32,000 bases of DNA from Candidatus Velamenicoccus archaeovorus (lineage in GTDB: Bacteria; Omnitrophota; Gorgyraeia; Velamenicoccales; Velamenicoccaceae). The stretch is from positions 630,001-662,000 of the forward strand of contig NZ_CP019384.1 of the NCBI RefSeq assembly GCF_004102945.1. Direction: 5' to 3'. The first letter of the stretch is position 1; each line of letters starts with the position of its first letter. Below, piece by piece: positions 1 through 25,810 of this stretch. Position numbers and translations under genes: made by a program. Under the pieces are notes generated by a model. It saw only the letters and a program-made list of their open reading frames with translations, did not search any database and was not told the origin of the DNA.

Positions 1-690
1 CACTGGGATGACGAGCCTTTCGACGCCATCGTTTCCAATCCGCCGTATTCCATCAAATGGGAAGGTGACAGTAATACGCTTCTTATAAATGACCCGCGCT
101 TTTCACCGGCAGGAGTATTGGCGCCAAAGAGCAAGGCAGATCTTGCCTTCACCATGCATATGCTTTCTTGGCTTTCTACCAGCGGCACAGCGGCAATCGT
201 TGAATTTCCCGGAGTGTTGTATCGTGGAGGTGCTGAGCAGAAGATCCGCAAATATTTGGTTGATAACAACTACATCGATACCGTGATCCAGCTCCCACCT
301 GATCTTTTTTTTGGCACGACTATCGCTACCTGCATTATCGTGCTCAAAAAAAGCAAAAAGGATAACAAAACCCTGTTTATTGACGCTTCAGCCGAATTTG
401 TGCGCGGTGGAAACAAAAATAAGCTTACTGAAGAAAACCGCGCCAAAATAATGGAGGCGTTTACCAAGCGTGCAGACAAAGCGCATTTTGCCAAATTGGT
501 AAGCAACAAAACCATTGAAGAAGATGACTACAACATCACGGTCTCCAGTTATGTGTTGCAAAAAGATACCCGTGAGGTTGTTGATATCAAAAAACTCAAC
601 GCCGAGATCAAAGGCATCGTTGCACGGCAGAACGAACTCCGCACGGCAATTGATGAGATTGTAGCTGATATTGAGGGTAGCCATGACTAA
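1..690 (+). CDS. hsdM: Type I restriction-modification methyltransferase subunit M, C-terminal part (5' end outside window)
   Basis: Frame 1 is open from base 1. The translation [20 protein letters not shown] carries the N6-adenine MTase NPPY motif (bases 37-48) and continues into track ORF 118..690. The stop overlaps the hsdS start (ATGACTAA). hsdS and hsdR follow. Confidence 0.9.
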
Positions 691-1177
691 ACCCATGAAT
701 AAAATAGAAAAATTGATCGACAAGTTTTGTCCCAAGGGGATAGAGTTTAAGGAGTTGGGTGAAGTGTTAGATTATGAGCAGCCCACTAACTATCTTGTGC
801 AATCCACTGAATATGACGATGATTTTGTTACGCCAGTATTAACTGCTGGCCAAAGTTTTATTCTTGGTTATACAGACGAAAATGATGGAATATATAAAGC
901 GAGCAAAGAAAATCCCACTATTATTTTTGATGACTTCACTACATCATTTCATTGGGTTGATTTTGATTTCAAGGTTAAATCTTCGGCGATGAAAATGCTC
1001 CGACCCGAAAAGAGTGCCGATGTTATTTTTAAATTTATTTACTATGCGATGAAATGTATTGAGTACTCACCTCAAGACCATGCGCGTCATTGGATTTCTA
1101 AGTATTCAAAATTCAAAATCCCCATCCCACCTCTGCCGGTGCAAGAAGAAATCGTCCGCATTCTGGATAAGTTTACA

Positions 1178-1225
1178 GAACTAGAAGCAGAACTAGAAGC
1201 AGAACTAGAAGCAGAACTAGAAGCA
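1178..1225 (+). repeat. Four perfect tandem copies of the 12-bp unit GAACTAGAAGCA, encoding (ELEA)4 in the HsdS central spacer
   Basis: Counted directly in the sequence. The repeat is in frame with hsdS. Confidence 0.95.
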
Positions 1226-1276
1226 AGGAAGAAGCAGTATGAATATTATCGTACTGAACTGCTGACGTTCAACGAA

Positions 1277-1325
<49 letters not shown>

Positions 1326-1863
1326 GTAAGATGGGTAACACTAGGAGAAATAGGGAAGATTGTTAGGGGGACTGCCATTACAGCAAAGGAAGCGACAGGT
1401 GGAAAAATTCCGGTAGTTGCCAATGCGCCTAAAGCCATTTATTTTCATGGTAAAAGTAACAGAAGTGGAGAAACAATCGTTATTGCTAGATCTGGAGCTT
1501 ATGCTGGGTTAGTCAGTTTCTGGGATGAACCGATCTTCCTCACTGATGCATTCAGCGTTCATGTGGAGTCTACTTTGCTCAAAACCAAATTTGTTTATTA
1601 CTTATTGAAGCAAAAACAGGAAACTATCCACTTCATGAAGAAAGGTAGTGGAGTGCCGCATGTTCGAGCAAAAGAGTTTGAATCTTACCGTATCCCCATT
1701 CCTCCTGTCGCCGAACAAGAGCGCATTGTTACCATTCTCGATAAATTTGACACACTGGTAAATGATATTTCTGTCGGCTTACCGGCGGAAGTGAACGCCC
1801 GGCGCAAACAATACGAATACTACCGGGACAAGTTGCTTACTTTTAGTCCATTGGAAGAAGAAT

Positions 1864-4800
1864 ATGCCAAGCAATAAAAAATACAATTTAGTAGCGGAAA
1901 ACCCGCAAAGCACCGTGGTGGCGGAATATACACCTCAGTATCGTACCGCAAAGGCGTACCAGAGCGAGGCGGAACTGGAGCGCGCTTTTATTGAGCAGTT
2001 AGGATCACAGGCGTATGAGTATTTGTCCATTGCCTCTGAAACTGATCTCGTGCTTAATCTGCGCAAACAACTGGAAAAGCTGAATGATTTCACCTTTTCC
2101 GATGCGGAATGGGAGGCGTTTTTTGCCGAAGAGATCGCCAACCCTAATCAAAGTATTGCTGAAAAAACAGCCACTATTCAGGAAGACTACATTAAAAATC
2201 TAAAATGTGATGACGGAACGGTTAAGAATATCTATCTGTTCCGCAAAGACAAGATCCACGAAAACAATTTACAGGTGATCAATCAATACACCACCGAAGA
2301 AGGCCAAAGATCCAACCGCTATGATGTAACGGTGCTGGTCAATGGCTTACCGCTTGTGCATATTGAGCTTAAACGGCGCGGGGTGGCAATTCAGGAAGCG
2401 TTCAATCAGATTAACCGTTACCAACGTGAGAGTTTTTGGGCTGGCTCCGGGCTCTTTGAATATGTACAAGTTTTTGTCATCTCCAATGGCACGCATACCA
2501 AATACTACAGCAATACTACGCGCTCCGAACATATCAAAGAATCTATCGAAGGATCTGTTAAGAAAGGGAAACGCTCGAGCAACAGCTTTGAGTTTACCAG
2601 CTGGTGGGCAGACGCGACTAACAGACCCATTACAGATCTCGTAGATTTTGCCAAAACTTTTTTTGCCAAACACGTGCTTCTCAATATCCTTACCCGCTAC
2701 TGTGTGTTCACCGCTGAAAAACAGCTTTTAGTGATGCGGCCTTATCAGATCGTGGCGACAGAGAGGATATTGAGCAAAATCGAAGTCAGCACCAACTATA
2801 AAAAACTCGGCACTGTGGAGGCTGGCGGATATATCTGGCACACCACCGGATCGGGTAAAACCTTGACCAGTTTCAAGACAGCCCAACTGGTGAGCAAGCT
2901 GCCCTATGTTGACAAAGTGCTTTTTGTCGTTGACCGCAAAGACCTTGATTATCAAACCATGCGTGAATACGACAAGTTTGAAAAAGGCGCGGCTAACAGC
3001 AATACCAGTACGGCGATATTAAAACGTCAGCTTGAAGACTCAAATGCGCGTATTATTATCACCACAATTCAAAAACTTGACCGGTTTATAGGGCACAACA
3101 AGGGACACACAATTTTTAACGGCCACATAGTGCTGATTTTTGATGAATGCCACCGCTCGCAGTTTGGCGAGATGCACGCTGAGATTACTAAAGCGTTTAA
3201 AAGCTATCACCTTTTCGGTTTTACCGGCACGCCGATCTTTGCCGTGAATGCTTCTGCCGGTGGGCGTCCCGATTTTAAAACTACCGCGCAGGCTTTTGGC
3301 GATAAATTGCACACCTACACTATTGTGGACGCTATTGCCGACAGAAATGTTTTGCCGTTTAAGGTGGATTATGTTTCTACCGTGCGTGAAGCCGAGGATA
3401 TTGAAGATAAAAAAGTGCGTGACATCGACCGGGAAGCAGTGCTTGCCGCGCCGGAACGGCTGGCAAATATTGTGAAATATATCCGCGACCATTTTGACCA
3501 GAAAACCAAGCGAAACAGTTTTTACAAACTCAAAGACCGGAGACTATCGGGGTTCAACTCCATTTTTGCCGTTTCTTCCATCGACGCGGCCAAGAAATAC
3601 TACGCGGAATTTCAACGACAGTTAAAAGACGCGCCGAGTGATAAAAAACTGAAAATAGCGCTTATTTACAGCTTTGGCGTAAACGAGGAAGAAATTGACG
3701 GCGTGATAGATGAAAACTCCGAAGACACCAGCGGGCTGGACAAAAGCTCAAGAGATTTTCTTGAGAACGCCATCAAAGACTACAACGTCATGTTTGGGAC
3801 ATCCTACGACACTTCTTCTGATAAATTTCAGAATTACTATAAAGATGTCAGCGAACGCGTAAAGAATCGAGAAGTGGATATTCTGCTGGTGGTCAATATG
3901 TTTTTGACCGGCTTTGACGCAACTACGCTCAATACCTTATGGGTGGATAAGAATCTGCGCTTGCATGGTTTATTGCAGGCATATTCTCGCACAAATCGTA
4001 TTTTAAACACCGTCAAGACGTTCGGAAACATTGTTTGCTTTCGCAATTTGGAAAAAGCGACCAATGAATCCATTGCCCTCTTTGGCGATAAGGAAGCCAG
4101 CGGGATTGTGCTGTTAAAATCGTATGACGAATACTACAACGGCTACAAAGATGGCGACAAGGAAGTCCGTGGATATAAAAGTCTGGTTGAAGAGCTTTTA
4201 ACAAAATTTCCGGTTGGCGAGCGCATTGTTGGAGAACAAAATCAAAAGAGTTTTATCCGGCTGTATAGCGCGATTTTACGGGTGAGAAATATCTTGATTA
4301 CTTTTGACGAATTTAGCGGCAATGAAATTCTAACTGAGCGGGACCTTCAGGATTATCACAGCGTCTACATTGACCTTTACAACGAGTTTCGCAAGGCAGA
4401 CGAAGGCGAAAAGGAAAATATCAACGATGACATCGTGTTTGAAATGGAGTTAATTAAGCAAATTGAGATCAATATTGATTATATTTTGGGGCTTGTCAAA
4501 AAGTACCATGAAGATCATATCAAGAACCGTGAACTGCTTATCGACATTAACAAGGCAATCGACTCAAGCGTTGAACTGCGCAACAAAAAAGATCTCATCA
4601 ACCAGTTTATCGCTTCGCTTGATGCTCATTCGGTCGTGGATGAAGACTGGCAGAAGTATGTGGAGAAGAAAAAGATTGAGGAGCTGGAAGATATTATTAA
4701 ACATGAAAACCTTGATCACGACGAAACCTATAAATTTGTGCGAAATGCATTTCGTAACGGCAGTGTCGCAACCACAGGCACTGCTCTGGCAAAAGTTTTA

Positions 4801-4917
4801 CCGCCTGTATCGCGCTTTTCTCCCGGAGGAGAGCGTTCCAAGAAGCGCGAGAGCGTTCTGGATAAATTGACACGATTCTTTGAGCGATTTTTTGATATTT
4901 CTGATGGGAAGATTTAA
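1864..4917 (+). CDS. hsdR: Type I restriction enzyme R subunit (helicase/endonuclease)
   Basis: 1017-aa ORF overlapping the hsdS end. It has a Walker A motif (TTGSGKT) and a DEAD-box-like motif (FDECHRSQ). Its size and its position after hsdM and hsdS are typical. Confidence 0.95.
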
Positions 4918-5179
4918 AGATGACTTGGAGCTTTTGAAATGGCAGAATTGCCTTAGGCGAAAGGAAACCTCGGTAGATTCAAAATACCTCCTGCCTTTCT
5001 ATCGCCCTCTGGGTTGGGCGTGGTGGTGGAATTGATGGGGTTGGAGTTGATGGGGGCATACGGTAGCCTTCGGGCGGTGCGAAGAAACCGCCCCAAAAAA
5101 ACTCCCGTATGCCCGGGTGCGTAACGCGCTCATACATAAACAGGTTAACGGATGAAAGCCGTGTGATTGTAAAAAACGC

Positions 5180-5208
5180 TTGACAAATACTGTATTACGC
5201 TGTACGCT
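5180..5208 (+). promoter_or_regulatory. Candidate sigma70 promoter of the XRE gene (TTGACA-N17-TACGCT); the mRNA would be nearly leaderless
   Basis: TTGACA lies at 5180-5185 and TACGCT at 5203-5208. The ATG at 5218 has no Shine-Dalgarno sequence upstream. Confidence 0.4.
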
Positions 5209-5217
5209 TATAACTAC

Positions 5218-5589
5218 ATGAGTAACGAATTTGGGAAGAAGATAAAGCAGGAACGGCTTCATCTTGATTTAAGCCTTCGTAAAGTTTGCGAAGCCGTATT
5301 TAGTGACAAGAAAAAACCGATATCTGTATCATATCTTAATGATATCGAGCAGGGGTATCGGAATCCCCCCGATAGTAAAATAATTGTTCAACTAGCCAAA
5401 GTCCTAAAACTTGAGCCTCAAGATCTTTTGAATTTGGCGGGGAAGGTTCACCCTATTATTGAGGATGTAAGCAAGAAAACAGAAGTTGGCGTTCTCTTTC
5501 GGAAGATAGCTGAGCATATTGAACGCGATCCTGGATTCGCTGCAAAAATCCAGGAACAGCTTGATAAAAATAAGGATGATCAAAAATGA
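5218..5589 (+). CDS. XRE-family helix-turn-helix transcriptional regulator (CapH-like position)
   Basis: 123 aa. The N-terminal segment KIKQERLHLDLSLRKVCEAV...SYLNDIEQG looks like an HTH_XRE domain. Its stop overlaps the start of the downstream metallopeptidase gene (ATGA). Confidence 0.75.
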   Translation: MSNEFGKKIKQERLHLDLSLRKVCEAVFSDKKKPISVSYLNDIEQGYRNPPDSKIIVQLAKVLKLEPQDLLNLAGKVHPIIEDVSKKTEVGVLFRKIAEHIERDPGFAAKIQEQLDKNKDDQK

Positions 5590-6305
5590 TGCGATGGATT
5601 GACGATGATCAAAGTGTCTATGGCCGCCGGCTCATCGCTACAGGCATAGATATAGATGAGGCTATGGAAATAAAATATCTGGAATTTTTTAATGGTAAAT
5701 GTGACATTGATCATCCAGCCCTTGACATCGAGCGCTTTATAGATGAAAATTTGAGAAAAGATAACATTGAATTTGAACCGGAGGCGACTGAGTTACAACA
5801 TAATGCTTTGGGGGCTACAAAGTTTAACCCGGATGGATCTCGATTGATTCAAGTTAATGCCAAACTTTATCGGCAAAGGAATTCAACAGCGCTAAAAGGC
5901 CGTTTCAGGTTTACGTGCGCTCATGAAGTGTTCCATGCCTTATTTCATGATAAGCTTTTTCGTAGCGAGGGTCATTTGAAATGTTTCGAACATCATATTC
6001 AGGAAGATATGGTTGAACCAGAGAAAAAATCGAATGATTTCATCGAGTGGCAAGCTAACCGAGGAGCGGCGGCGTTGTTAATGCCAGGATCAATTTTTAA
6101 AGAAAACGTTAAGCGAATCCGCGCCATATCTCACGATCACGAATCGTTAGTGCGAGATTTAGCGTCTCGTTTTGATGTGTCTAGGCAATCGGCACTTATT
6201 CGGCTGCAGACGTTTCGATCCGTGGCTGTGCGCGAAGATGATTTCAATCTGGAAAATGACGGCATTGATAGTTACCAAGATGCCCGGAAAAGAACCTGGA
6301 ATTAG
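5586..6305 (+). CDS. ImmA/IrrE-family zinc metallopeptidase (CapP-like position)
   Basis: 239 aa with an HExxH motif (CAHEVFHALFH). It is translationally coupled to the XRE gene, which is the classic XRE plus ImmA/IrrE pairing. Confidence 0.8.
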   Translation: MMRWIDDDQSVYGRRLIATGIDIDEAMEIKYLEFFNGKCDIDHPALDIERFIDENLRKDNIEFEPEATELQHNALGATKFNPDGSRLIQVNAKLYRQRNSTALKGRFRFTCAHEVFHALFHDKLFRSEGHLKCFEHHIQEDMVEPEKKSNDFIEWQANRGAAALLMPGSIFKENVKRIRAISHDHESLVRDLASRFDVSRQSALIRLQTFRSVAVREDDFNLENDGIDSYQDARKRTWN

Positions 6306-6395: not shown

Positions 6396-6629
6396 ATGGC
6401 AGAACGAAAACGAGTATGGGTTTCACCAGACGGTAAAGGCGGATGGGATGTTAAAACGCAAGGTGCCCAGCGGGCCGCCGGTAATTACGAGGACAAAACA
6501 GACGCATTATCAAAAGCAAAGGAGGTCGCGAAGAATGCACCCTTAGGACAGGTGGTTGTTCAAGGGCGAGATGGAAAAATCCAAACCGAATATACATATG
6601 GCAAAGACCCAGAGCGCTTCCCAGGTTAA
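6396..6629 (+). CDS. Small DUF2188-like protein
   Basis: 77 aa behind a strong RBS (AAGAGGAGGAG). The pattern WxV...GAQRAAGNYEDKTDALSKAKEVA...GRDGKIQTEYTYGKDP matches my memory of DUF2188. Confidence 0.6.
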   Translation: MAERKRVWVSPDGKGGWDVKTQGAQRAAGNYEDKTDALSKAKEVAKNAPLGQVVVQGRDGKIQTEYTYGKDPERFPG

Positions 6630-6659
6630 TACACAGGGCAACTGAAAGGAGAAAGAGTC

Positions 6660-6923
6660 ATGGAAAATCAAGGACAGGGACACAATAAGCAAGTCACGAT
6701 TATAGTAAATGCTCGCCCAGAAACGGTGGCGAAAGACGATATATCTTATAGTGAGGTTGTCGCTTTGGCCTTTCCGAATCCGCCAACCGGCGATAATGTT
6801 TCGTTTGTTGTTATGTACCGTAGGGGCCACGGCGATAAGACGCAAGGGACTCTTGTCCAAGGCCAAACAGTCAAGGTAAAGGAGGGGATGATATTTGATG
6901 TCTCACCAAATAATAAGTCGTAG
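6660..6923 (+). CDS. Multiubiquitin-type ubiquitin-like (beta-grasp) protein
   Basis: 87 aa with RBS GAAAGGAGAAAG. VTIIVNARPETVAKDDISYSEVVALAF...VSFVVMYRRG...GTLVQGQTVKVKEGMIFDV resembles the prokaryotic Multiubiquitin domain. It sits directly upstream of, and overlaps, the E2-E1 gene. Confidence 0.6.
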   Translation: MENQGQGHNKQVTIIVNARPETVAKDDISYSEVVALAFPNPPTGDNVSFVVMYRRGHGDKTQGTLVQGQTVKVKEGMIFDVSPNNKS

Positions 6924-8082
6924 TCCAGACCTTAAGCGACTTCGCGATGAAGGCTATGATATAGAGGTCAAGTCAGGATATCTTTTTATCAAGGATGTTC
7001 CATACGTCGATTCAGATAAGAAGATAGCGCGCGGCACCTTGGTATCAAAATTAACTGTAGCTGGGGACATGGCTGTGCCTCCTGATACCCATGTCGCTTA
7101 TTTTATTGGGGGGTCTCCGTGTGATGCGAATGGATCTCCTCTACAAAAAATTATCAACTCGAGCCAAAAACATAAGCTGGATAATGTTATCGAAGTTGAT
7201 CATACGTTTTCTGCGAAGCCTATGCCAGATGGAAAATATAAGGATAATTGTGATAAGGTAAAAAAATACATTGCTATGATTTCCGGTCACGCTCAGGCGG
7301 TAGATCCAAACGTAACGGCGGCAACCTTCCCAGCTTTGCCGACAACAGGAGAGGATAAATCATTCTTTAATTATATCGATAGCGCTTCTAGCAGAGCCCA
7401 GATCGGGGCGGCTACGAGCAAGTTGGAGATCGGCGGCATTGCAATCGTAGGAGTCGGTGGGACTGGTTCGTATATTTTGGATTTGGTGTCGAAAACTCCG
7501 GTAAGTGAGATTCACATTTTCGACAATGATAAGTTCCTGAATCACAACGCATTTAGAACGCCGGGTGCTCCTTCTATAGATGAATTGCGAAGGCAGCCCA
7601 AAAAGGTATTTTATTTGAGGGACATTTACTCAAGGATGCATCGGCATATTATTTCGCATGACGTTTATGTGGATGCGTCAAACGTAGATCTTCTTAAGCC
7701 AATGAAGTTCGTATTCATTTGCCTTGATAAAGGGGGCATAAAAAAGTGTATCGTTGAAAAGTTAGAAGAATGGGGTACTCCATTTATTGACGTCGGCATG
7801 GGCCTTCAGCTCGTTGACGAATCATTGACTGGTGTGCTTACCGTAACTGCCAGTACAATTGAGCAGCGCAAGCACATTAAAGATAGGATTTCTTTTTCAG
7901 AAGATAACGAAGGGAATGAGTATTCCCAAAACATACAAATCGCCGATTTGAACGCTCTTAATGCGGCTCTCGCTGTCGTCAAATGGAAGAAGATGTGTGG
8001 ATTTTATAAGGATCTTGAAAAAGAGTTCTTCTGTGCATATTCAGTGAACGGTAATACTCTAGTTAATGAAGACAAATCATGA
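6895..8082 (+). CDS. E2-like N-terminal domain fused to a ThiF/E1-type adenylyltransferase
   Basis: 395 aa. The C-terminal half has the E1 nucleotide-binding motif IAIVGVGGTGSYILDLV...IHIFDNDKFLNHNAFR. About 170 aa at the N-terminus are not E1. The multiubiquitin / ThiF / DUF6527 gene neighbourhood is a recognised trio. Confidence 0.75.
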   Translation: MMSHQIISRSPDLKRLRDEGYDIEVKSGYLFIKDVPYVDSDKKIARGTLVSKLTVAGDMAVPPDTHVAYFIGGSPCDANGSPLQKIINSSQKHKLDNVIEVDHTFSAKPMPDGKYKDNCDKVKKYIAMISGHAQAVDPNVTAATFPALPTTGEDKSFFNYIDSASSRAQIGAATSKLEIGGIAIVGVGGTGSYILDLVSKTPVSEIHIFDNDKFLNHNAFRTPGAPSIDELRRQPKKVFYLRDIYSRMHRHIISHDVYVDASNVDLLKPMKFVFICLDKGGIKKCIVEKLEEWGTPFIDVGMGLQLVDESLTGVLTVTASTIEQRKHIKDRISFSEDNEGNEYSQNIQIADLNALNAALAVVKWKKMCGFYKDLEKEFFCAYSVNGNTLVNEDKS

Positions 8083-8525
8083 AACGAACCAAAATATTAA
8101 CATATCGATTCCTTGAGTATATCCCTCGCGATATAGAGGAAGGGGTGATTTACATTTCAATGACATTTTCGACGGCGATTCATAAGTGCTGTTGTGGATG
8201 TGGTCAAGAGGTTGTAACTCCATTTGGCCGGACAGATTGGCAGTTGACTTTTGATGGCGAATCAATTTCACTGGATCCATCGATTGGAAATTGGAGTTTT
8301 GATTGTAAGTCACACTACTGGATAAGACATAATAAAATTATATGGGCACCTCGTTGGTCTAAGAAAAAAATTGATGCTAATAGGGCATACGATAAGCGGT
8401 TGAAGGATAGATATTTTATGGCTGTACAAGAGAAAGAGAATAGAAGTGATCGGAAGATAAGGCTTGCGGATTGGCTTGCTGAAAAGAATATATTGAAGCG
8501 GTTGAAAAACAATAGCTTAAGGTAA
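8079..8525 (+). CDS. DUF6527-like small protein (CxCGCG motif; candidate peptidase of the Ubl system)
   Basis: 148 aa, translationally coupled to the E1 gene (ATGA overlap). It contains HKCCCGCGQEV and the conserved-looking SIGNWSF.C.SHYWI. The family assignment is from memory. Confidence 0.5.
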   Translation: MKRTKILTYRFLEYIPRDIEEGVIYISMTFSTAIHKCCCGCGQEVVTPFGRTDWQLTFDGESISLDPSIGNWSFDCKSHYWIRHNKIIWAPRWSKKKIDANRAYDKRLKDRYFMAVQEKENRSDRKIRLADWLAEKNILKRLKNNSLR

Positions 8526-8647
8526 ATGTTTTAACAACAGAGATTCCTTCGCTCAGAATTTTTCGTTTTCGAAGTATCGAAAGATTTTGCTTAGAGAATA
8601 TTTCTTTCTTGATCTTGTAGTTTTTTTCTTGAGGCCGCAATAAGTAA

Positions 8648-8932
8648 GTCCTCCTTTCTTTTTCTTCGCCAAAAATACTCAATGCTTTAATTTCGTCAAC
8701 AAAATTCCGGAAATAATTCGTCTCCGTTCTTGTGGTCTGCCTCAAGAGCGGCTTCGCCCCTTCGGGGAGTCCTCAATTTTTTCCTCAGAATCCAAGAAGG
8801 TTCGTTCTCTCCCTCGTCGTTCTCTCTCCTTCGGCCAATCCTTGTTTTATTGACTAAACCGGCGCTTGTGGTCTGCCTCAAACGCCTTTAAAGGCCTTGA
8901 GTTCTCCTTTTTGGCGTAAAAGAAAGGAGGAC
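8648..8932 (+). ncRNA. Structured module A (285 nt): candidate cis-regulatory leader RNA or ssDNA-folding element upstream of the SpoVG-like gene
   Basis: The 15-nt GTCCTCCTTTCTTTT (8648-8662) is the exact reverse complement of AAAAGAAAGGAGGAC (8918-8932), which contains the SD. Further pairings are 8668-8675/8908-8915, 8677-8682/8897-8902 and 8691-8704/8845-8858. Internal hairpins at 8724-8751 and 8861-8886 both have the loop TGGTCTGCCT. Confidence 0.5.
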
Positions 8933-8935
8933 CAC

Positions 8936-9241
8936 ATGCGTCCAAAAGCAAAAAAACAGCAACAAAATCAGGAAAGGAAGGAGGTGAGCAAAATGTTCGA
9001 AGTCTCAAGGATCCATCGTATCGAAGGAAACGATACTCTGAAGGCCTTTGTGGACATCAAAGTCGCGGATTGCGTTTTGATCAAAGGCCTGAGAGTCATG
9101 GCGACCAAGGATGACACCTTGTTTGTCGCCATGCCGTCTCAGAAGGCGGAGGATGGCAAATACTATCCTACCGTCAAGCCTCTTTCCAAAGAGGCGAATC
9201 AAGAGCTGCAGGACGCAGTTCTTGCTGCCTATAACGAATAG
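8936..9241 (+). CDS. SpoVG-family protein (alternative start at 8993)
   Basis: MFEVSRIHRIEGNDTLKAFVDIKVADCVLIKGLRVMATKDDTLFVAMPSQKAEDGKYYPTVKPLSKEANQELQDAVLAAY aligns by eye with SpoVG. Both the ATG at 8936 (AAGGAGG upstream) and the ATG at 8993 (GGAAGGAGGTGA upstream) have strong RBSs. Confidence 0.75.
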   Translation: MRPKAKKQQQNQERKEVSKMFEVSRIHRIEGNDTLKAFVDIKVADCVLIKGLRVMATKDDTLFVAMPSQKAEDGKYYPTVKPLSKEANQELQDAVLAAYNE

Positions 9242-9290
9242 GCAGTAAAAAAAGCTGCGCTATCGGCTAGACGGGCAAAAATAAAAAATC

Positions 9291-9316
9291 GATCCCCGGC
9301 CAGGGGATCTTTTTTT
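9291..9316 (+). terminator. Intrinsic terminator after the SpoVG-like gene
   Basis: Stem GATCCCC / GGGGATC with loop GGCCA, followed by T7. An A-run precedes the stem. Confidence 0.7.
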
Positions 9317-9413
9317 GTGCCTGGCGCGGCTATCACCGTTTGCCGATCAGCCTCAACACCTTCCTTTCTGTCTCTTTTGTTGTTTTTTTTCTGATTTTTC
9401 AAGCGCCGGCTTC

Positions 9414-9701
9414 GTCTCCTTTCTGTTTGTTTTCGCTTTTCTAACCTTAAGCCCTGATTTTCGTCAATAAAATCACGAAAATAATTCGTCTCCGCTTTTG
9501 TGGTTTGCCTCAAAAGCGGCTTCGCCCCTTCGGGGAGTCCTCAATTTTTTTCGTGACCCAGGAAGACTCTCTCACTTCATCCGTCGTTCGTTCGTCTTCG
9601 GGCATACCTGTTTTTTTTGACCAAAACCGCCGGTTGTGGTCTGCCTCAACCGGCTTCAGGAGCTTAGGTCAAGACTTTTTCAGCGAAAACAGAAAGGAGA
9701 C
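9414..9701 (+). ncRNA. Structured module B (288 nt), paralogue of module A, upstream of the 94-aa ORF
   Basis: GTCTCCTTTCTGTTT (9414-9428) is the exact reverse complement of AAACAGAAAGGAGAC (9687-9701), which contains the SD. Hairpins at 9492-9519 (loop TGGTTTGCCT) and 9629-9654 (loop TGGTCTGCCT). A block of about 90 nt (9458-9548) is nearly identical to 8691-8779. Confidence 0.5.
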
Positions 9702-9707
9702 CAAGCC

Positions 9708-9992
9708 ATGAAAAACATGAACAAAAAAGAAAACGAGCAAAAATTCGACGAAGGGGTGTTGAGGGCTGACGGCTGCATGATGAGGCATAACCAGTCGCGT
9801 CAGGCAGAATTCCGTACGCAGGAAGAGGATTTTCCTGAGCATTCTTTCGGTAAGTCCGCGTACTGGGAAGAAAGAAGACTGCTTAACCGCGTCCATACGC
9901 TCAAGGCCATGGGTTTCAAGATCAGGCCTGAACAGACGCTCGAAGAGTTCGTCCAGGCGCATGAGGACGCGTTCACCGAGGACGTCCTATGA
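9708..9992 (+). CDS. Hypothetical protein (94 aa)
   Basis: The ATG at 9708 follows GAAAGGAGA. It is the first gene after module B and is coupled to the next ORF (ATGA overlap). No recognisable domain. Confidence 0.55.
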   Translation: MKNMNKKENEQKFDEGVLRADGCMMRHNQSRQAEFRTQEEDFPEHSFGKSAYWEERRLLNRVHTLKAMGFKIRPEQTLEEFVQAHEDAFTEDVL

Positions 9993-10506: not shown

Positions 10507-10529
10507 ATCAAAGGGAGGAGGTGAATGCT

Positions 10530-10760
10530 ATGCAATTAAACGATCTAAATGGGAAAACCACCATCAAGGTCGCAGGAGAGGAGGTCAGCGTCAATGCTTC
10601 TGATTCTGTCAAGGACACCTTAAAAAGGCTCCTTGAAGAGAAGGGCATTGATTCCTTCACGATCCTGGTTGACGGCGCTGAGGTGGCCTCAACGAGTGAT
10701 CTGCCTGAAACCTTCGCGGATCACGAAATCGAAGTGCAAAGATACGTCAAGGCAGGCTAA
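10530..10760 (+). CDS. Small ubiquitin-like beta-grasp protein ending in ...VKAG (PRTRC protein C / Prok_Ub-like)
   Basis: 76 aa from the ATG at 10530 (GGGAGGAGG RBS; the track starts at GTG 10521). It has a C-terminal glycine. Its size and position directly upstream of the E2-like, E1 and JAB genes fit a Ubl. Confidence 0.6.
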   Translation: MQLNDLNGKTTIKVAGEEVSVNASDSVKDTLKRLLEEKGIDSFTILVDGAEVASTSDLPETFADHEIEVQRYVKAG

Positions 10761-10777
10761 AGAAAGGAGAAAAACGC

Positions 10778-10814
10778 GGGAAAGAGGGGAGAGGTTCCCC
10801 TCTTTCCCTATTTT
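10778..10814 (+). terminator. Strong hairpin plus T-tract between the Ubl and E2-like genes (intra-operon terminator or attenuator)
   Basis: GGGAAAGAGGGGA (10778-10790) pairs perfectly with TCCCCTCTTTCCC (10796-10808) across the loop GAGGT. TATTTT follows. Confidence 0.6.
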
Positions 10815-10824
10815 AGAGGTCAAA

Positions 10825-11427
10825 ATGATTGATGAGAAGCTAATCCACAACGCAAGGCCGGCGTCCAAGATCGTAGAAAGTATTGACGAATCCTGGCGCC
10901 AATTTGTCGAGGACTTGAAAGAACAGACGTTCAAGATTCCCTTTAAGGGAAACTACAGGTGTTGTGTTAAAGATGGCTTTTTCCACGTTGAAGCCTACGT
11001 GGGCCTTCTTGTGATCGACAAGCTCTACGATGGCCACAATACCTATCTGCTCAAGACCCCTATTAAGCATGAGCCTTTTACGCTCTACGGCGAGTATGAC
11101 CAGACAGGCGACTTTCGCGATTTTGTTTCGGATCCTGAAATCGGCTGCCACTATCTAGCCATGAGCGATATGGACGCCGGCCGCAAGATCTGCACAGGAG
11201 ATATCCAGATCAACAATGCGAGCCTGAATTCGCTTGAAGCGCTCAAGGCCATGGCGCTTGAAGTCATCAAGTCTTTCAGGCTCATTAACCTGACGTCCTT
11301 GGGCACCGTGATATTGCCGGAGGAGCATTCTGCTCTCAGAGATGTCTTATCCGATAAGTCCAAGGACACGGACACAAAGACAAAGAGCCTCCTGGACGCC
11401 GGGTTAATTGAACCTCTATTAACATAG
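10825..11427 (+). CDS. E2-like (UBC-fold) protein candidate (PRTRC protein B-like)
   Basis: 200 aa from the ATG at 10825; the track ORF 10633 start overlaps the Ubl gene and the hairpin. GRKICTGDIQ resembles the E2 active-site G-x-ICLDIL context. It lies between the Ubl and E1 genes. Confidence 0.5.
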   Translation: MIDEKLIHNARPASKIVESIDESWRQFVEDLKEQTFKIPFKGNYRCCVKDGFFHVEAYVGLLVIDKLYDGHNTYLLKTPIKHEPFTLYGEYDQTGDFRDFVSDPEIGCHYLAMSDMDAGRKICTGDIQINNASLNSLEALKAMALEVIKSFRLINLTSLGTVILPEEHSALRDVLSDKSKDTDTKTKSLLDAGLIEPLLT

Positions 11428-11438
11428 GAGAAGAATCA

Positions 11439-12383
11439 ATGCCTCAAGGAGCCATTTATTCGCGTCAGGAGTTGATCGACCAATTGGACATACCGCAAAT
11501 CGCCACAGTCGTAGGATGCGGCGGGACAGGGTTCTGGACCGCGGTGTTTCTGGCGATGAGCGGGGTTGAAGAATTAGTCCTGATCGACCGCGATATCATC
11601 GAGATATCCAATCTGAACAGGCTGCTTTTGGAAGAGCGGCATGTGGGAAAGAAAAAGATCGAGGTTTTAAAAGAGGTCCTTTCAGATATCAGGAAATCTA
11701 CGCGGATCGAAATCCACGATATGCGCATCGAAAAATCTCCGGACTGTCAGGTTCTGCGCGGCAAGATATTCTGTTGCACGGACAATTTGAAAAGCCAACA
11801 GCTCATCTGCGCTTACTGTAAAAAGAACGATTTAATCTACCAGAGAATAGGCTATGACGGCACGATTTTGAACGTTTCCAGGGCTTTTCCCTTGTCTTTT
11901 GAAGAGACGGAAGAACGGCAGGGTTATACGTTTACACCTTCCTGGGTTGTTCCTGCGGTATTGGCAGCAGCGGCCGGCGTTGCCTCGGTCCTGTATAAGC
12001 ACCTGTCCTTGATGGAAGATTTGGGCAAGCTGCACATACAGCATTCTTCCTTTGTTCCTGAGAAGATTCTGGATGAAGCCAAGCAGGAGCATGAAGATTA
12101 CATCACGGATCACATTGATGATTATCTTCCAAGCGGTTACGGCTATTGCGACGACTGCACCCACTGCGATGACTGCAACAGGGTGGATCCGGAAGATCAT
12201 TGTTCAGATTGCGATAAGGAATATACCCAGGCCGATCTTGACGAAAAGATCGCCGAAGAAAAAGAAGAATGGCTGAAAGAAACGATCGAGGAGATCAAAT
12301 CAGGCAAGGTCTCCAGCGAAGAGTTAAAAGAAGCCTTAAAGCAATGGCTAAAAGCCGCCAAAAGGAGGTCTAAAAATGAATAA
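11439..12383 (+). CDS. ThiF/MoeB/E1-family adenylyltransferase with a Cys/Asp-rich C-terminal tail
   Basis: VVGCGGTGFWTAVFLAMSGVEELVLIDRDIIEISNLNRLLL is the E1 Rossmann/adenylation signature. The C-terminal CDDCTHCDDC...HCSDC cluster is a likely zinc site. Confidence 0.85.
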   Translation: MPQGAIYSRQELIDQLDIPQIATVVGCGGTGFWTAVFLAMSGVEELVLIDRDIIEISNLNRLLLEERHVGKKKIEVLKEVLSDIRKSTRIEIHDMRIEKSPDCQVLRGKIFCCTDNLKSQQLICAYCKKNDLIYQRIGYDGTILNVSRAFPLSFEETEERQGYTFTPSWVVPAVLAAAAGVASVLYKHLSLMEDLGKLHIQHSSFVPEKILDEAKQEHEDYITDHIDDYLPSGYGYCDDCTHCDDCNRVDPEDHCSDCDKEYTQADLDEKIAEEKEEWLKETIEEIKSGKVSSEELKEALKQWLKAAKRRSKNE

Positions 12384-13080
12384 TATCCAAAACAACGTCA
12401 GCAATATCTTGAATGTCAGTATCAAGAATTATACGGATTGCGGCTGGTGCTTGGATAAGGCCAACGAAGAGATCTTGAATATTCCCTGGTCCATCTGGAG
12501 CCAGTGGCTGTTTATGTCCCAAAGGATGGGCAAAAAAGAGTGGGGAGCGATATTTTGGGTCAAGGATAACACCGTCACCGGCTTTAAGATTCCCAAGCAG
12601 GAGGTCAATGCGGTTGAGTGCGCTTTCAAGGAAGAATTGGGCGGGGACGGAATTATCCATTCCCACCACGACATGGGCGCTTTTCATTCAAGCCAGGATG
12701 ACGCCCACGCGCGCAATCTTTATCGGTATTCAATAGTCCTTTCTAATTCCGATGGAAGCATCTGTACAAAAAAACTTAAGCTGCCCTGCGGTTCTTTCGG
12801 TTACGTCCAGGTGCGGCTCGGCATCATTGATCTGCCGAAAATTGATTTGGCAAAAATCGGCGAGAAAAAGAGAGAATTGATCTCGGAGCAACCCGAAGAG
12901 GAATTATTCCGGCAGGCTCGATATGACGAGTTGCAAATGCAGTGCGAAGAATGCGTAAGGTCTGATTGCCATGGTTGCGAGATTTTTCTTGCTATGCAGG
13001 AAATAGAAGCCGGAATGTTCGGGACCGGATTTGATGGATTCCAGAGACAGACACGGGAAGAGCCGAAATGTGGTCGATAG
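12376..13080 (+). CDS. JAB/MPN (JAMM) metalloisopeptidase (PRTRC protein A / BilD-like)
   Basis: HSHHDMGAFHSSQDD fits the JAMM motif HxHx7Sx2D exactly. RBS AAAGGAGG. The start overlaps the E1 stop. There is a C-terminal CxxCx4CxxC cluster. Confidence 0.85.
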   Translation: MNNIQNNVSNILNVSIKNYTDCGWCLDKANEEILNIPWSIWSQWLFMSQRMGKKEWGAIFWVKDNTVTGFKIPKQEVNAVECAFKEELGGDGIIHSHHDMGAFHSSQDDAHARNLYRYSIVLSNSDGSICTKKLKLPCGSFGYVQVRLGIIDLPKIDLAKIGEKKRELISEQPEEELFRQARYDELQMQCEECVRSDCHGCEIFLAMQEIEAGMFGTGFDGFQRQTREEPKCGR

Positions 13081-18976: not shown

Positions 18977-19114
18977 AGCCGAGGAGAAATGCGGTATTGC
19001 CTCGGGAGGGAACCCCCAGGGGATTCCACTTGGTCAAAAATTGGAAGAAATGGTGAAGGCGTGATCCGGCAGGGAGCTCCGGAGATACGAAAAACAACTC
19101 AAGGAACGAAAGAC

Positions 19115-20716
19115 ATGTGTAAAACAAACAACGCAATCCCAACGCTCTTGAGGGCCAAGCATTTTAAGCCCGGCTTGAAATGTCTTTCGGGTTTCTTTTT
19201 GCTTTTGGGATTCTGTTGTTTGTTTTCTCCGCCCGCGCACGCCAACAACATCAAGGTCTCCGACGTCAGCCTCCAGAACCTGGATTCTACCGCGGGCACG
19301 GTGGACATCAAGTTCGACGTCTCCTGGGACAACAGCTTCACCCGCACGGACGCAAACGGCAACGCCACCTTTGACCGGGCCTGGGTCTTCGTCAAATACC
19401 AGATCGGCGGCACAGGAGCCTGGTATCACGCCACGCTTGTCTCAGGAGGTTCCCTGGGCAGCTACTCCACATCCACCGCTATCGGCATCACCTCGGACGG
19501 CAAGGGGGCGTTTTGCCGGCCGGGTCTTAATCAAACACTAAGGTGGAGTTTCCCCTATGGAACGTCGATGGATACCATCAGGATCAGGGTTTTTGCCATC
19601 GAAATGGTCTACATCCCCCAGGGCTCTTTTGTCCTGGGTTCCGGCGGAACGGAATCAGGCAGCTTTACGGACGGCTCATGGACGAGTGGAGCAACTATTC
19701 CCTTTACCATTTCTTCAGAAGATGCGCTATCCATAGCCGCGAGTGCAGGCAGTCTTTGGGGAACATCTACCTCCGGCAACAATACCATCGGTGACGCTGG
19801 GACTCTTCCCGCCGCCTTCCCCAAGGGCTACAGCGGCTTCTACGTGATGAAGTACGAGGTCTCTCAGGGGCAATACCGGGACTTCCTGAATACCCTGACC
19901 CGTGCCCAGCAGAACACCAGGACCGGAACCTCCCTGGCTGCGGGCACGACATCCGTCACCAACATCTACGTCATGAGCAACACGGCGACCATATCCTATC
20001 GCAACGGCATCCGCTGCGACGCGACCATCTCGTCCTCGGACCCGATCACTTTTTACTGCGACCTGAACGGCAATGCCGTTCCCAACGAATCCGATGACGG
20101 CGAGTGGATCGCCTGCAACTGGCTCTCCTGGGCGGACCTGATGGCCTATGCCGACTGGGCGGGCCTGCGCCCCATGACGGAGCTGGAATTCGAAAAGGCC
20201 TCGCGAGGCCCGGCCCGTTCAGGCTCGCCGACAGCCAACGAATACGCCTGGGGGAACACGACCATTGATTACTTCTCCGATCTTTCCAATGCAGGCACCT
20301 CAAGCGAGGCCATAGGCCCGACCCGGCCCAATGCCAACTGCAACTATTCCAGCGCCTCGCCCGACGGCCCGGTCCGCTGCGGCATGTTTGCCACAAGCTC
20401 ATCGAGCCGCACCACGGCAGGCGCTTCTTATTACGGCCTGATGGAAATGTCCGGCAACCTCTGGGAGAGGTGCGTCACCATCGGCAATGCCACAGGCCGC
20501 GCCTTCACAGGCTTGCACGGCAACGGCACCCTTGACTCCAGCGGCAACGCCGATGTTACAAACTGGCCTGGAACAGGCGCCACTGGTGGCGGTTTCCGCG
20601 GCGGCGCTTGGGATGATGACACATCGTACGCCCGCGTGTCAGACCGCAGCTACGCGGCGTACACGAATTCGTTTCGGTACTACAGTTACGGAGGTCGGTT
20701 CGCCAGGACCCCTTGA
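19115..20716 (+). CDS. DGR target protein 1: secreted FGE-sulfatase / C-type-lectin-fold protein with C-terminal VR
   Basis: The ATG at 19115 (start uncertain) gives the hydrophobic leader ...FFLLLGFCCLFSPPAHA. YVMKYEVSQGQYRDFLNTL and ...YYGLMEMSGNLWERCV are the FGE-sulfatase (DUF323) pattern. VR1 encodes the last 42 aa. Confidence 0.85.
   Translation: MCKTNNAIPTLLRAKHFKPGLKCLSGFFLLLGFCCLFSPPAHANNIKVSDVSLQNLDSTAGTVDIKFDVSWDNSFTRTDANGNATFDRAWVFVKYQIGGTGAWYHATLVSGGSLGSYSTSTAIGITSDGKGAFCRPGLNQTLRWSFPYGTSMDTIRIRVFAIEMVYIPQGSFVLGSGGTESGSFTDGSWTSGATIPFTISSEDALSIAASAGSLWGTSTSGNNTIGDAGTLPAAFPKGYSGFYVMKYEVSQGQYRDFLNTLTRAQQNTRTGTSLAAGTTSVTNIYVMSNTATISYRNGIRCDATISSSDPITFYCDLNGNAVPNESDDGEWIACNWLSWADLMAYADWAGLRPMTELEFEKASRGPARSGSPTANEYAWGNTTIDYFSDLSNAGTSSEAIGPTRPNANCNYSSASPDGPVRCGMFATSSSSRTTAGASYYGLMEMSGNLWERCVTIGNATGRAFTGLHGNGTLDSSGNADVTNWPGTGATGGGFRGGAWDDDTSYARVSDRSYAAYTNSFRYYSYGGRFARTP
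20588..20714 (+). repeat. DGR variable repeat VR1
   Basis: In my manual alignment to the TR it is the same length with about 16 differences, all at TR adenines (for example AAC->TAC/AGC and AAT->GAT/GCT/TTT). Confidence 0.9.
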
Positions 20717-20820
20717 TTTTTTGTTCTTTTACACTTTGGGGTTTTTGGGGGAATTAGTGGGTAAGCCGGTGAACAGGTTAGCCGGTGAATCGGTGAAATG
20801 AATAAACCAGAAAAGAAGGT

Positions 20821-21240
20821 ATGGGAAAGGTAACCCCAGTTGTGGAGAAGCACTACAGGCTGATTTTATGGACATTGCCCAAAATTGCCAACTTTCCAAA
20901 AGACCAAAGATTCCTGTTGGCCGACAGGATCGAGACGCTGCTTTTGGATGTGCTTCTGCTCTTGATCGAGGCGACATATTCGGCGGAGAAGAGGGAAATG
21001 CTGAAGAACGCCAATTTGAAAGTCGAGCAGATGAGATTTATGATGCGCATCGCCAAGGACATGGAATACGTGAATATCAAAGGTTATGACTTTTTCTGCG
21101 TTTCGCTTCTTGAAATAGGCAGGATGATAGGGGGTTGGAGAAAATCCGAGGAGGATAAACAAAACCAGAGTCCTTGTGTTCACGGATACAAGGAGCGGTC
21201 ACCGAAAGAAAGGGGTCCAGACGTCGTCACCTGTCCTTGA
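20821..21240 (+). CDS. avd: DGR accessory variability determinant (Avd), four-helix-bundle protein
   Basis: 139 aa. LPKIANFPKDQRFLLADRIETLLLDVL...IGRMIGGWRKS resembles bAvd. It lies immediately upstream of the TR and RT. Confidence 0.8.
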   Translation: MGKVTPVVEKHYRLILWTLPKIANFPKDQRFLLADRIETLLLDVLLLLIEATYSAEKREMLKNANLKVEQMRFMMRIAKDMEYVNIKGYDFFCVSLLEIGRMIGGWRKSEEDKQNQSPCVHGYKERSPKERGPDVVTCP

Positions 21241-21348
21241 CTTTTGTACAAGGTCGAGGCAAAAAGAGTTCGCCTGCCGCGCGGGAAAGCGGAACGCTTG
21301 CGGCGCGGCGAGGGTTGTAAAAAGGTGCGAGGTCGTAAAGCGTTGTCC

Positions 21349-21475
21349 GGCGGTTTCCGCGGCGGCAATTGGAATAATGACACATCGAACGCCCGCGTAT
21401 CAGACCGCAACAACGCGGCGAACACGAATTCGAATCGGAACAACAATAACGGAGGTCGGTTCGCCAAGACCCCTT
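21349..21475 (+). repeat. DGR template repeat (TR), adenine-rich with many AAC/AAT codons
   Basis: It translates as GGFRGGNWNNDTSNARVSDRNNAANTNSNRNNNNGGRFAKTP. It is homologous to VR1 and VR2 and sits 40 nt upstream of the RT start. Confidence 0.9.
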
Positions 21476-21514
21476 ACTTTCTCCTTATGGATCTTCAGCT
21501 AAGGCGAGGGAAAG

Positions 21515-22672: not shown

Positions 22673-22716
22673 CACAAGGCGGTTCGTTCCCGATCGGGTG
22701 CTGATGACCCGCGCGC

Positions 22717-22737
22717 GGGGGGGGGGGGGGGGGGGGG
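22717..22737 (+). repeat. Homopolymeric G21 tract
   Basis: Counted directly. It lies 45 nt after the RT stop and about 195 nt upstream of the target-2 start. Confidence 0.9.
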
Positions 22738-22930
22738 ATTGTCAGTTGCCAGCGTAGGACAGTCTCTGTTGCGCAATCTTGCGAGCGGTGCGTTTTCAAG
22801 AAAAGATGCAGGATTCACCAGGGGCCTAAAGGACAAAGGCACCGGTCGAAAGGCGGACGGGTGAACCGATAAACCGGTTAACCGGCTGACCGGCTCATAG
22901 GCAAACCGGGTAAGGTAACAAGGAATAGAT

Positions 22931-24484: not shown

Positions 24485-24725
24485 TTTTTTGTTCTTTTAC
24501 ACTTTGGGGTTTTTGGGGGAAGAACGAGCGGGTAAGCCGGTGAACAGGTGGAGTGCGTGGTTCGTTGTTCGTGGTTCGTTCACGAGCAACAGCGAACACG
24601 AGACGAACCACGAGGCAAGAACGACGAGGAACGAGCTGACGTGGAATACGCTGTTCGTGGTTCGTTGTTCGGGATTCGTTTACGAACAACGAGGAACGAA
24701 ACGCGAGGCAGGAGAAGGAACGAAG

Positions 24726-25645: not shown

Positions 25646-25810
25646 GTTTCAATATTATCATTGCAGTTCAGGAAGTCAAGAAAGAATAATGATGAGAGAG
25701 ATGAACGGGTTAGCGGGTGGAGTGCGTGGTTCGGGGTTCGTGGTTCGTTCACGAACGACAGCGAACACGAGACGAACCACGAAACACGAGGAACGAACAA
25801 CGAGCTGACG

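Follow-up and report, generated by a model that had tools for sequence, protein, structure and literature searches.

Hairpin modules on a probable integrative conjugative element of Omnitrophota as candidate branched single-stranded-DNA promoters

A 32,000-nt stretch of the Candidatus Velamenicoccus archaeovorus (Omnitrophota) genome, contig NZ_CP019384.1, positions 630,001 to 662,000 of the forward strand (the window), contains two intergenic modules of about 290 nt, A (8648-8938) and B (9408-9710), in each of which a pair of hairpins with an invariant 10-nt loop is embedded. Module A immediately precedes a SpoVG-like gene and module B a gene for a 94-aa protein (orf94), and the element carrying them is probably an integrative conjugative element of Omnitrophota. 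We propose, considering the case for and against to be evenly balanced, that the modules represent a branched class of single-stranded-DNA promoter resembling Frpo of plasmid F. The features of the two modules and their genes, in window coordinates (hairpins and stem arms are given without a strand), are as follows.

8648-8938, minus strand: module A, a branched fold directly 5′ of the SpoVG-like gene (nhmmer match 8640-8942)
8648-8675: 5′ arm of the outer stem of module A, the Shine-Dalgarno (SD) complement, paired with 8908-8932
8672-8677, minus strand: -10-like TATTTT, whose first two bases face a bulge (plus-strand TCTCC, 8903-8907)
8694-8699, minus strand: -35-like TTGACG, paired in the fold with TTGACT (8851-8856), its homologous columns conserved
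8724-8751: hairpin A1, CCGTTCTTG / TGGTCTGCCT / CAAGAGCGG, at the apical three-way junction of module A
8757-8767: mini-hairpin CCCC-TTC-GGGG (minus strand CCCC-GAA-GGGG); homologues keep the stem and vary the loop
8861-8886: hairpin A2, GGCGCTTG / TGGTCTGCCT / CAAACGCC, a side branch 4 nt past TTGACT
8923-8938, plus strand: SD sequence AAAGGAGG and ATG (8936) of the SpoVG-like gene, both within the outer stem
8936-9241, plus strand: SpoVG-family gene (PF04026, 3.3e-20; the Pfam match starts at an internal ATG, 8993)
9291-9316, plus strand: intrinsic-terminator-like hairpin with a T run, separating the SpoVG unit from module B
9408-9710, minus strand: module B, directly 5′ of the 94-aa gene (nhmmer match 9412-9712)
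9439-9467, minus strand: weaker promoter-like element of module B, TTGACG (9467 to 9462), 17 nt, TTAGAA (9444 to 9439)
9492-9519: hairpin B1, CCGCTTTTG / TGGTTTGCCT / CAAAAGCGG
9629-9654: hairpin B2, GCCGGTTG / TGGTCTGCCT / CAACCGGC
9708-9992, plus strand: 94-aa gene (orf94), family unassigned, which follows a module in all related islands

The 16-mer TTGTGGTCTGCCTCAA is found on the + strand at 8730, 8866 and 9634 and, with a single C>T mismatch, at 9498, against a chance expectation of none. The hairpin tip TTG-TGGTCTGCCT-CAA is accordingly present in four copies, one of them with the C>T change, on stems that are unlike one another yet paired. Read on the + strand, hairpin 1 of module A has one T.G pair and hairpin 2 one C/A mismatch, which is a G.T on the minus strand. 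The loops lie 136 nt apart in both pairs (8733 to 8869 and 9501 to 9637). An earlier note on this DNA had described the four hairpins, their stems and this spacing, and a re-reading of the window sequence bears out all of it.

The hairpin pairs are part of two repeat copies with a 768-nt period, which share 105 nt at 87% identity and 44 nt at 80%. Long-range inverted repeats close both modules, 8648-8662 with 8918-8932 in module A (15/15) and 9408-9428 with 9687-9707 in module B (21 nt, 95%), and in both the SD region is included and pairs with its upstream complement (the anti-SD). This pairing forms the outermost layer of the fold. Inside it lies a second stem, GTCAA (8695) with TTGAC (8851), and then a third, A/T-rich one, GGAAATAATT with AATTTTTTCC; the apex is a junction bearing hairpin 1 and the CCCC-TTC-GGGG mini-hairpin, and hairpin 2 branches off the side just past TTGAC. 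Both modules are far more stable than their shuffles, with z scores of -5.7 and -7.2 for the plus-strand RNA and of -5.6 to -9.7 for DNA. A sliding 300-nt DNA-fold scan of the window for more hairpin promoters was dominated by GC content and uninformative, module A itself being unflagged.

Homologous modules were collected from metagenomes of Omnitrophota and of the Planctomycetota-Verrucomicrobiota-Chlamydiota (PVC) group, 61 in total and 37 after removal of redundancy at 97% identity. Genome-wide matches to the 16-mer were mostly due to chance and were filtered by flanking complementarity. The genome scan left true homologues in a ‘Planctomycetia’ metagenome-assembled genome (MAG), in a near-identical region to which the 16-mer is confined there (contig CAYYFL010000008.1, loci L026 and L046), and in three Omnitrophota MAGs. 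The metagenome scan with hairpin 1 plus GGGGAGTC returned 53 loci, and a hidden Markov model of the module (nhmmer) found extra copies lacking the exact pattern, up to three per locus; there are three copies in L151 and L185, two in the window, and 2-3 per island overall. Two loci retrieved through the ThiF protein, independently of the motif, each have two modules and four conforming hairpins. The closest relative of the ThiF encoded in the window is 97% identical and annotated as Candidatus Velamenicoccus archaeovorus, and ThiF homologues at E below 1e-30 number 302; therefore, the island is common. A blastn search of 8640-9720 against PLSDB (72,556 plasmids) gave no match.

The homologous loci supply between 69 (ungapped criterion) and 74 distinct hairpins. 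Their stem sequences are unrelated, and even the loop-closing pair varies (G-C, C-G, A-U or U-A). In the set of 74, 88.4% of stem cells are paired, compared with 58.4% in shuffles, and the covariation score is 0.764 vs 0.206, a value reached by none of 500 shuffles. Two-sided changes occur at all nine of the stem pairs, with a steep fall when the partner column is slid. The loop has the plus-strand consensus YGGNNU(G/A)CCU, (A/G)GG(C/T)ANNCC(A/G) on the minus strand, with G2, G3, U6, C8, C9 and U10 invariant; this invariance persists over about 40% sequence divergence, alongside extensive compensatory changes in the stems. Modules have between one hairpin (L034) and four (the L063 type), and in homologues the loop motif recurs a third time, unpaired (GGGCAUGCCU), immediately 5′ of a conserved TTGACA.

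Because the GG and CC of the loop never covary, simple stability does not account for the invariance. The loop is conserved in sequence and not by pairing, and for that reason our guess is that it is a recognition site for some factor. What had been proposed from four hairpins, namely that pairing is kept while stems change and that the whole is a structurally constrained, conserved element with a sequence-invariant loop, thus holds on a far larger scale. Nor does the motif match an Rfam family: the Rfam search that had been suggested, with covariance models at gathering score, gave no match in the window or in 10 related loci, and hits at E values up to 10 were at chance level.

With respect to the strand that folds, the earlier note had chosen the + strand, and hence the mRNA, on the strength of the T.G pair. 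Within the window this argument is invalid, because the T.G of hairpin 1 and the C/A of hairpin 2 cancel out and the window alone shows no strand preference. The homologues point the other way. In 36 of the 37 non-redundant modules the minus strand has the lower minimum free energy (RNA parameters; mean -126.7 vs -115.8 kcal/mol), and after subtraction of each strand's own shuffled mean it is still ahead, by -6.3 kcal/mol, in 36/37. With DNA parameters, module A gives -55.9 kcal/mol (z -7.2) for the minus strand and -49.0 (z -5.6) for the plus strand, and module B -76.5 (z -9.7) and -71.4 (z -8.3), respectively. Single mismatches between Watson-Crick pairs in the module helices are plus-strand A.C, that is, minus-strand G.T, in 45 cases and plus-strand G.T in 13; for the hairpin stems the counts are 29 and 13. 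The RNAalifold consensus has 56 pairs for the minus-strand alignment and 39 for the plus-strand one. Frpo2 of plasmid F, used as positive control, is asymmetric in the same direction (T-strand -101.1, z -6.5; complement -96.7, z -5.7). Since the energies, the wobbles, the consensus pairs and the Frpo2 control agree, the data favour the template (minus) strand, not the mRNA, as the one under folding selection.

A proposed pairing of the hairpin loop with the ribosome-binding site (RBS) did not survive the comparison either. The sequence GAGGACCACA is indeed at 8927-8936; in homologues, however, the ACCA(C) beside the RBS is not conserved, and the longest loop:RBS complementarity averages 7.1 nt, as against 7.3 nt in shuffles.

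The template strand also carries the promoter-like boxes. A promoter scan of module A picks out TTGACG-16-TATTTT on the minus strand, from 8699 to 8672, with 9/12 matches. The element of module B lies in the homologous columns and fails the stringent scan. Boxes of other modules, likewise on the minus strand, are these.

Main Omnitrophota module classes, minus strand: TTGCAC-17-TATTGT or TTGAAA-16-TATTGT
L063-type modules, minus strand: TTGATA-17-TATTCT
Third module class (L151c, L185c), minus strand: TTGATA-16-TATACT

In the homologous minus-strand columns, TTG is present in 31 of 32 sequences and TATTGT or TATTTT in 27, with a spacing of 16-17 nt. A stringent sigma-70-like scan of 43 modules gave 45 matches on the minus strand and none on the plus strand; a match falls at the homologous site in 15/43 modules, compared with 4% in shuffles. 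In the predicted minus-strand folds the -35 box lies in duplex, with positions -12/-11 in an internal loop or facing a bulge. The boxes point to the hairpin base, beyond which the template arm runs on into the downstream gene. Judged from the position of the -10 box, transcription would start at about 8913-8916, just 5′ of the SD. Many Omnitrophota modules have additional, lineage-specific minus-strand sites, TTGACG-16-AATGAT and TTGAGA-17-AATACT, which lie just upstream of hairpin 2′ and of hairpin 1′, respectively. Other promoter readings were considered and rejected. The loop does not suit sigma-54 or extracytoplasmic-function promoters, as judged by eye from a wrong spacing and varying stems; a plus-strand promoter running from TTGACA to a downstream -10 box would have a spacer of at least 22-23 nt, with or without extrusion of hairpin 2, and has no scan match in the 43 modules; and a promoter beside the hairpin base reading towards the loop (TTGACG-16-AATGAT) is found in part of the Omnitrophota modules only and is not kept across classes.

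All modules share the strand of the gene that they immediately precede, and AAAGAAAGGAGG-N5-7-ATG forms their end. A link between the element and expression of the downstream genes, as suggested earlier, is supported. The module supplies even the first codons: in Omnitrophota, ATGAGCCAAGTAAAAA heads SpoVG-like and orf94-like genes alike, so that both proteins begin with MSQVK (e.g., L107, 2560 onward). Given the same start before two different genes, the module evidently brings the translation start along. The terminator after the SpoVG-like gene, followed by a new module, indicates separate transcription units. In the window, the ATG of module A opens a 19-codon in-frame extension (MRPKAKKQQQNQERKEVSK, 8936-8992) before a second SD and ATG (8993).

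The surroundings of the modules point to conjugation. In the related islands L203/L201 and L177, a conjugative type IV secretion operon encoding TrbI, TraC_F_IV (VirB4), secretin, T2SSE, T2SSF, a PilS-type pilin, TraU, TraF and TraH lies directly upstream of the module/SpoVG cassette and is co-oriented with it. The 94-aa gene is followed by DUF6876 and then by the ThiF/JAB cassette, and in related islands the genes beyond DUF6876 and an HTH_17 gene are housekeeping genes; therefore, the cassette is at one end of the integrated element. Between the secretion genes and the modules, the related islands have a variable slot for defence genes. No tRNA genes were seen at the island borders of L199, L201 and L203. 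In plasmid F the leading-region genes, oriT and the tra genes are co-oriented and, by analogy, the transferred strand would here be the template strand of the co-oriented tra genes. DUF6876 is present on 103 PLSDB plasmids, for example beside a ParB-family gene; upstream of DUF6876 on a Rhodovastum plasmid there are several GC-rich hairpins, none of them decisive, and plasmid-borne SpoVG homologues, confined to Firmicutes megaplasmids, are uninformative.

It is tempting to propose the following mechanism. The template (minus) strand would enter the recipient single-stranded and fold into a long branched stem-loop, in which the arm complementary to 8648-8704 comes to lie opposite the arm complementary to 8845-8932. 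A duplex containing TTGACG-16-TATTTT would thus be rebuilt, with the -35 box paired and positions -12/-11 of the -10 box facing a bulge and hence already unpaired. With the promoter aimed at the hairpin base, transcription by host RNA polymerase would begin some 20 nt short of the ATG, immediately ahead of the RBS, and the resulting mRNA would be without the upstream complement of the RBS, whereas a read-through transcript from double-stranded DNA would contain this anti-SD. Expression would cease in double-stranded DNA because the two halves of the promoter are then about 200 bp apart and the module has no plus-strand promoter. The invariant-loop hairpins would be conserved branches, one apical, the other branching from the template arm immediately past the -35 box.

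Several observations weigh against this proposal. It does not explain the invariance of the loops. Hairpin 2 leaves the template arm within the -35/-10 spacer, which would be awkward for a sigma-70 holoenzyme; the -10 boxes of module B and of two other classes are poor (TTAGAA, ATCTCT, GATAAA), and the commonest -35 box, TTGCAC, agrees with the consensus at three of six positions. Frpo of F is a single long unbranched hairpin whose base lies about 47 nt before the ATG, unlike the modules, which are branched, with at least two side hairpins having the invariant 10-nt loop, and whose stem runs through SD and ATG. The 36/37 and the other strand-bias counts come from related sequences, in about seven divergent classes, and are not independent, but the sign of the bias is identical in each of these classes; furthermore, 13 plus-strand G.T pairs are present. 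Finally, there are no tra genes within the window, and oriT and relaxase were not located in the islands, so that transfer of the minus strand, and early entry of the region, are presumed.

The pairing of SD with anti-SD could instead belong to a structured leader of a plus-strand mRNA, made from an upstream promoter, in which the long-range stem hides the RBS and the hairpins bind a partner that opens or locks the structure, either a protein, such as the SpoVG-like one, or an RNA. This pairing is the most conserved long-range feature of the modules, the RNA fold of the plus strand is significant by a wide margin (z -5.7 and -7.2), loops of the UUCG type occur on that strand, a weak plus-strand promoter-like site lies upstream of module A at 8531-8559, and proteins of the SpoVG family bind nucleic acids. 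We nevertheless think such a leader unlikely as the explanation: the minus strand folds better in 36/37 modules and is favoured by the wobble positions, the A.C mismatches beside the loop-closing pair of hairpin 2 would weaken an RNA hairpin, loop:RBS pairing is not conserved, and Rfam contains no match. A conserved plus-strand promoter is lacking as well, and module B comes after a terminator and has no promoter-like site in front of it. The SpoVG-like gene always accompanies the modules, but solely because the entire island is homologous. A leader of this kind would be compatible with a single-stranded-DNA promoter, in that it could silence read-through transcripts. The minus-strand bias and the conjugative context, for their part, would fit equally well a single-stranded-DNA element of another function, for example a priming site of the ssi or sso type, where the complementary strand would be initiated, or a loading site on the transferred strand for primase, for a protein like the single-stranded-DNA-binding protein or for the SpoVG-like protein, the invariant loops being the feature recognised and the boxes incidental. 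Invariant loops on freely variable stems, one to four per module as in arrays of binding sites, are in keeping with this, and ssoA-type origins likewise combine a conserved loop sequence, CS-6, with variable stems. Frpo itself reportedly also primes DNA synthesis (Masai and Arai 1997, cited in PMC11541004). On the other hand, another function leaves unexplained why the modules end exactly at SD and ATG and why the position and orientation of the -35/-10 boxes are conserved, and the islands yielded neither a primase nor a known partner gene; we consider it distinctly improbable.

The folding bias would also suit a cis-antisense RNA read from the minus strand, which would control the downstream gene through loops that start kissing contacts, as in FinP/traJ, and the extra minus-strand promoter-like sites near hairpins 2′ and 1′ of many Omnitrophota modules could serve it. 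These sites are, however, absent from modules of the window type and from other classes, and the one minus-strand promoter whose position is conserved is directed away from the module when the DNA is double-stranded. Identical loops before unrelated genes would be unexpected for specific antisense pairs. We consider this reading highly unlikely. A miniature inverted-repeat mobile element, or a duplicated intergenic repeat devoid of structural function, has in its favour the length of about 300 nt, the long terminal inverted repeat and the multiple copies. The earlier note had named membership in a mobile-element or insertion-sequence family as an outcome that would speak against a structural role, and the copies instead sit only at fixed positions in one island, in a single orientation and fused to SD and ATG. 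In the genome scan, the MAG with the near-identical region (CAYYFL010000008.1) likewise had the 16-mer in that region only, and compensatory changes are extensive around invariant loops. We therefore regard a mere repeat as extremely improbable.

Returning to the single-stranded-DNA promoter, the loops that it leaves unexplained could have a role of their own. The hairpin tips may form a recognition code on the transferred single-stranded DNA that licenses or shuts off zygotic gene expression, an idea that we put forward tentatively and think unlikely to hold. As readers of the (A/G)GG(C/T)ANNCC(A/G) tips we can only guess at candidates: a factor borne or induced by the element, such as the SpoVG-like protein, or the host polymerase or primase.

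The same tip is found outside Omnitrophota. Contigs of MAGs from DPANN archaea (Nanoarchaeota/Pacearchaeota) carry TTG-TGG(T/G)TTGCCT-CAA on unrelated, covarying stems, at the following positions.

L052, 810-825, plus strand: DPANN hairpin tip
L115, 213-242, minus strand: DPANN hairpin tip
L120, 5582-5609, minus strand: DPANN hairpin tip
L089, 4159, plus strand, and 3811, minus strand: DPANN hairpin tips

These tips are within a conserved structured intergenic element of about 200 nt (DNA fold z -3 to -7), of which L089 has two inverted copies; the contigs are chromosomal, with an aminoacyl-tRNA synthetase nearby. The DPANN element has no Rfam match and no further similarity to the module. In addition, the gap that follows the terminase gene contains a perfect hairpin, tcaggtttTTGTGGTTTGCCTCAAaaacctg, in two near-identical IMG/VR contigs of a tailed phage, L125 (minus strand, 2259) and L129 (minus strand, 1161), whose genes encode the terminase large subunit and portal. 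The phage hairpin could be due to chance or be the same motif. As the hairpin alone matches, the DPANN and phage loci were rejected as homologues of the module. Because DPANN archaea and a tailed phage both have the same 16-nt tip, the code, if there is one, may be shared across domains. If so, this would fit the archaeon-preying habit of Candidatus Velamenicoccus archaeovorus.

The rest of the window can be described briefly. Its defence slot holds a type I restriction-modification system, a helix-turn-helix (HTH)/M78 pair and a Multi_ubiq/E1/DUF6527 set; the corresponding slot of L199 has CBASS-like genes (SMODS/patatin/MBL). Region 118-6305 comprises an HsdM fragment, HsdS fragments at 671-1366 and 1563-1877 (apparently split) and HsdR at 1864-4917, after which the HTH/ImmA-IrrE (M78) pair is at 5218-6305. 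Just upstream of module A, 6396-8525 encodes DUF2188, Multi_ubiq (6660-6923), an E1-like protein with DUF6791 and ThiF (6895-8082; NCBIfam PRK06153 at 580 bits) and DUF6527 (8079-8525); ubiquitin-like conjugation sets of this type have been linked to phage defence. Downstream, the cassette at 10521-13080 consists of orf79, orf200, ThiF (11439-12383) and JAB (12376-13080). It resembles the PRTRC-type ThiF/JAB system, to which it could not be assigned, since of the NCBIfam/TIGRFAM models PRTRC A-F only PRTRC_A gave a score, 22 bits with a cut-off of 101.8. The cassette may serve the element in establishment or anti-defence.

A diversity-generating retroelement at 18989-25115 has bAvd (20821-21240), a reverse transcriptase (21515-22672), a 132-nt template repeat (21349-21480) and two variable repeats, VR1 (20588-20719) and VR2 (24356-24487), 86% and 90% identical. 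The variable repeats lie at the 3′ ends of two genes of the FGE-sulfatase/C-type-lectin fold, and the region also contains two 23S-rRNA-IVP (four-helix) genes. Related retroelement genes come after the module/DUF6876 cassette in L174, L155, L190 and L192. The region 25619-32000 is occupied by one open reading frame, longer than 2,127 aa, which continues beyond the window; its product is repetitive, rich in Thr, Ser and Gly, and resembles a surface protein. Candidatus Velamenicoccus archaeovorus is known for a giant surface protein.

Conjugative plasmids can express anti-defence and establishment genes ahead of complementary-strand synthesis, which is accounted for by single-stranded-DNA promoters; experimental knowledge of these promoters has so far been limited to the enterobacterial F and IncI plasmids. 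Should the modules be such promoters, a branched class in Omnitrophota would imply an ancient origin of the strategy or more than one origin, and promoters of this sort would be recognisable in the absence of homology, by a strand-biased fold together with rebuilt -35/-10 boxes and RBS pairing. The invariant hairpin loops would then be an extra layer that is missing from the F paradigm, and the SpoVG/ThiF/JAB and orf94/DUF6876 genes would be candidates for early-expressed establishment or anti-defence genes.

How, then, do the modules compare with known systems? In an mRNA leader that sequesters the SD, such as an RNA thermometer or a translational riboswitch-like element, the RBS pairs with an upstream complement in a large conserved fold, as it does here. 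In contrast with those leaders, the strand bias of the modules is antisense, no conserved core resembling a ligand pocket is evident, and there is no Rfam match. The ssoA-type origins and the M13 minus-strand origin are folded single-stranded DNA that is recognised by host RNA polymerase, and the modules share with ssoA a short loop sequence that is kept while the stems vary. They differ in their place at gene starts, since ssoA and the M13 origin prime DNA synthesis and are not located there, in having no sequence similarity to these origins, and in their context, which is conjugation and not rolling-circle replication.

The published single-stranded-DNA promoters, Frpo1/2, ssi1-3 and two further pESBL classes, are intergenic hairpins of about 300 nt upstream of leading-region operons, which rebuild -35/-10 boxes and are off once the DNA is double-stranded (PMC12672017, PMC9849209, PMC11541004), and their classes are without homology to one another (PMC12672017). 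The modules likewise are about 300 nt long and intergenic and occur in several copies, each before a separate operon, as do Frpo and ssi of the conjugative plasmids F, IncI1 ColIb-P9 and pESBL; the element that carries the modules is probably conjugative too. Their template strand is predicted to form a very stable stem-loop that would rebuild -35/-10 boxes, good ones in module A and several classes and weak ones in module B and some others, and it is the better folder, in both window modules as in Frpo2 and in 36/37 modules overall. Downstream genes are co-oriented with tra genes, here as seen in related islands. On the other side, blastn against PLSDB shows no sequence similarity to Frpo/ssi, and the host phylum is Omnitrophota (PVC). 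Given this shared architecture and context in the face of no similarity, the branching, the invariant loops and the inclusion of SD and ATG in the stem, the modules are set apart from the Frpo1/2-ssi1-3 sequence family, and it is an evenly poised proposition that they constitute a new class, related to these promoters by functional likeness only.

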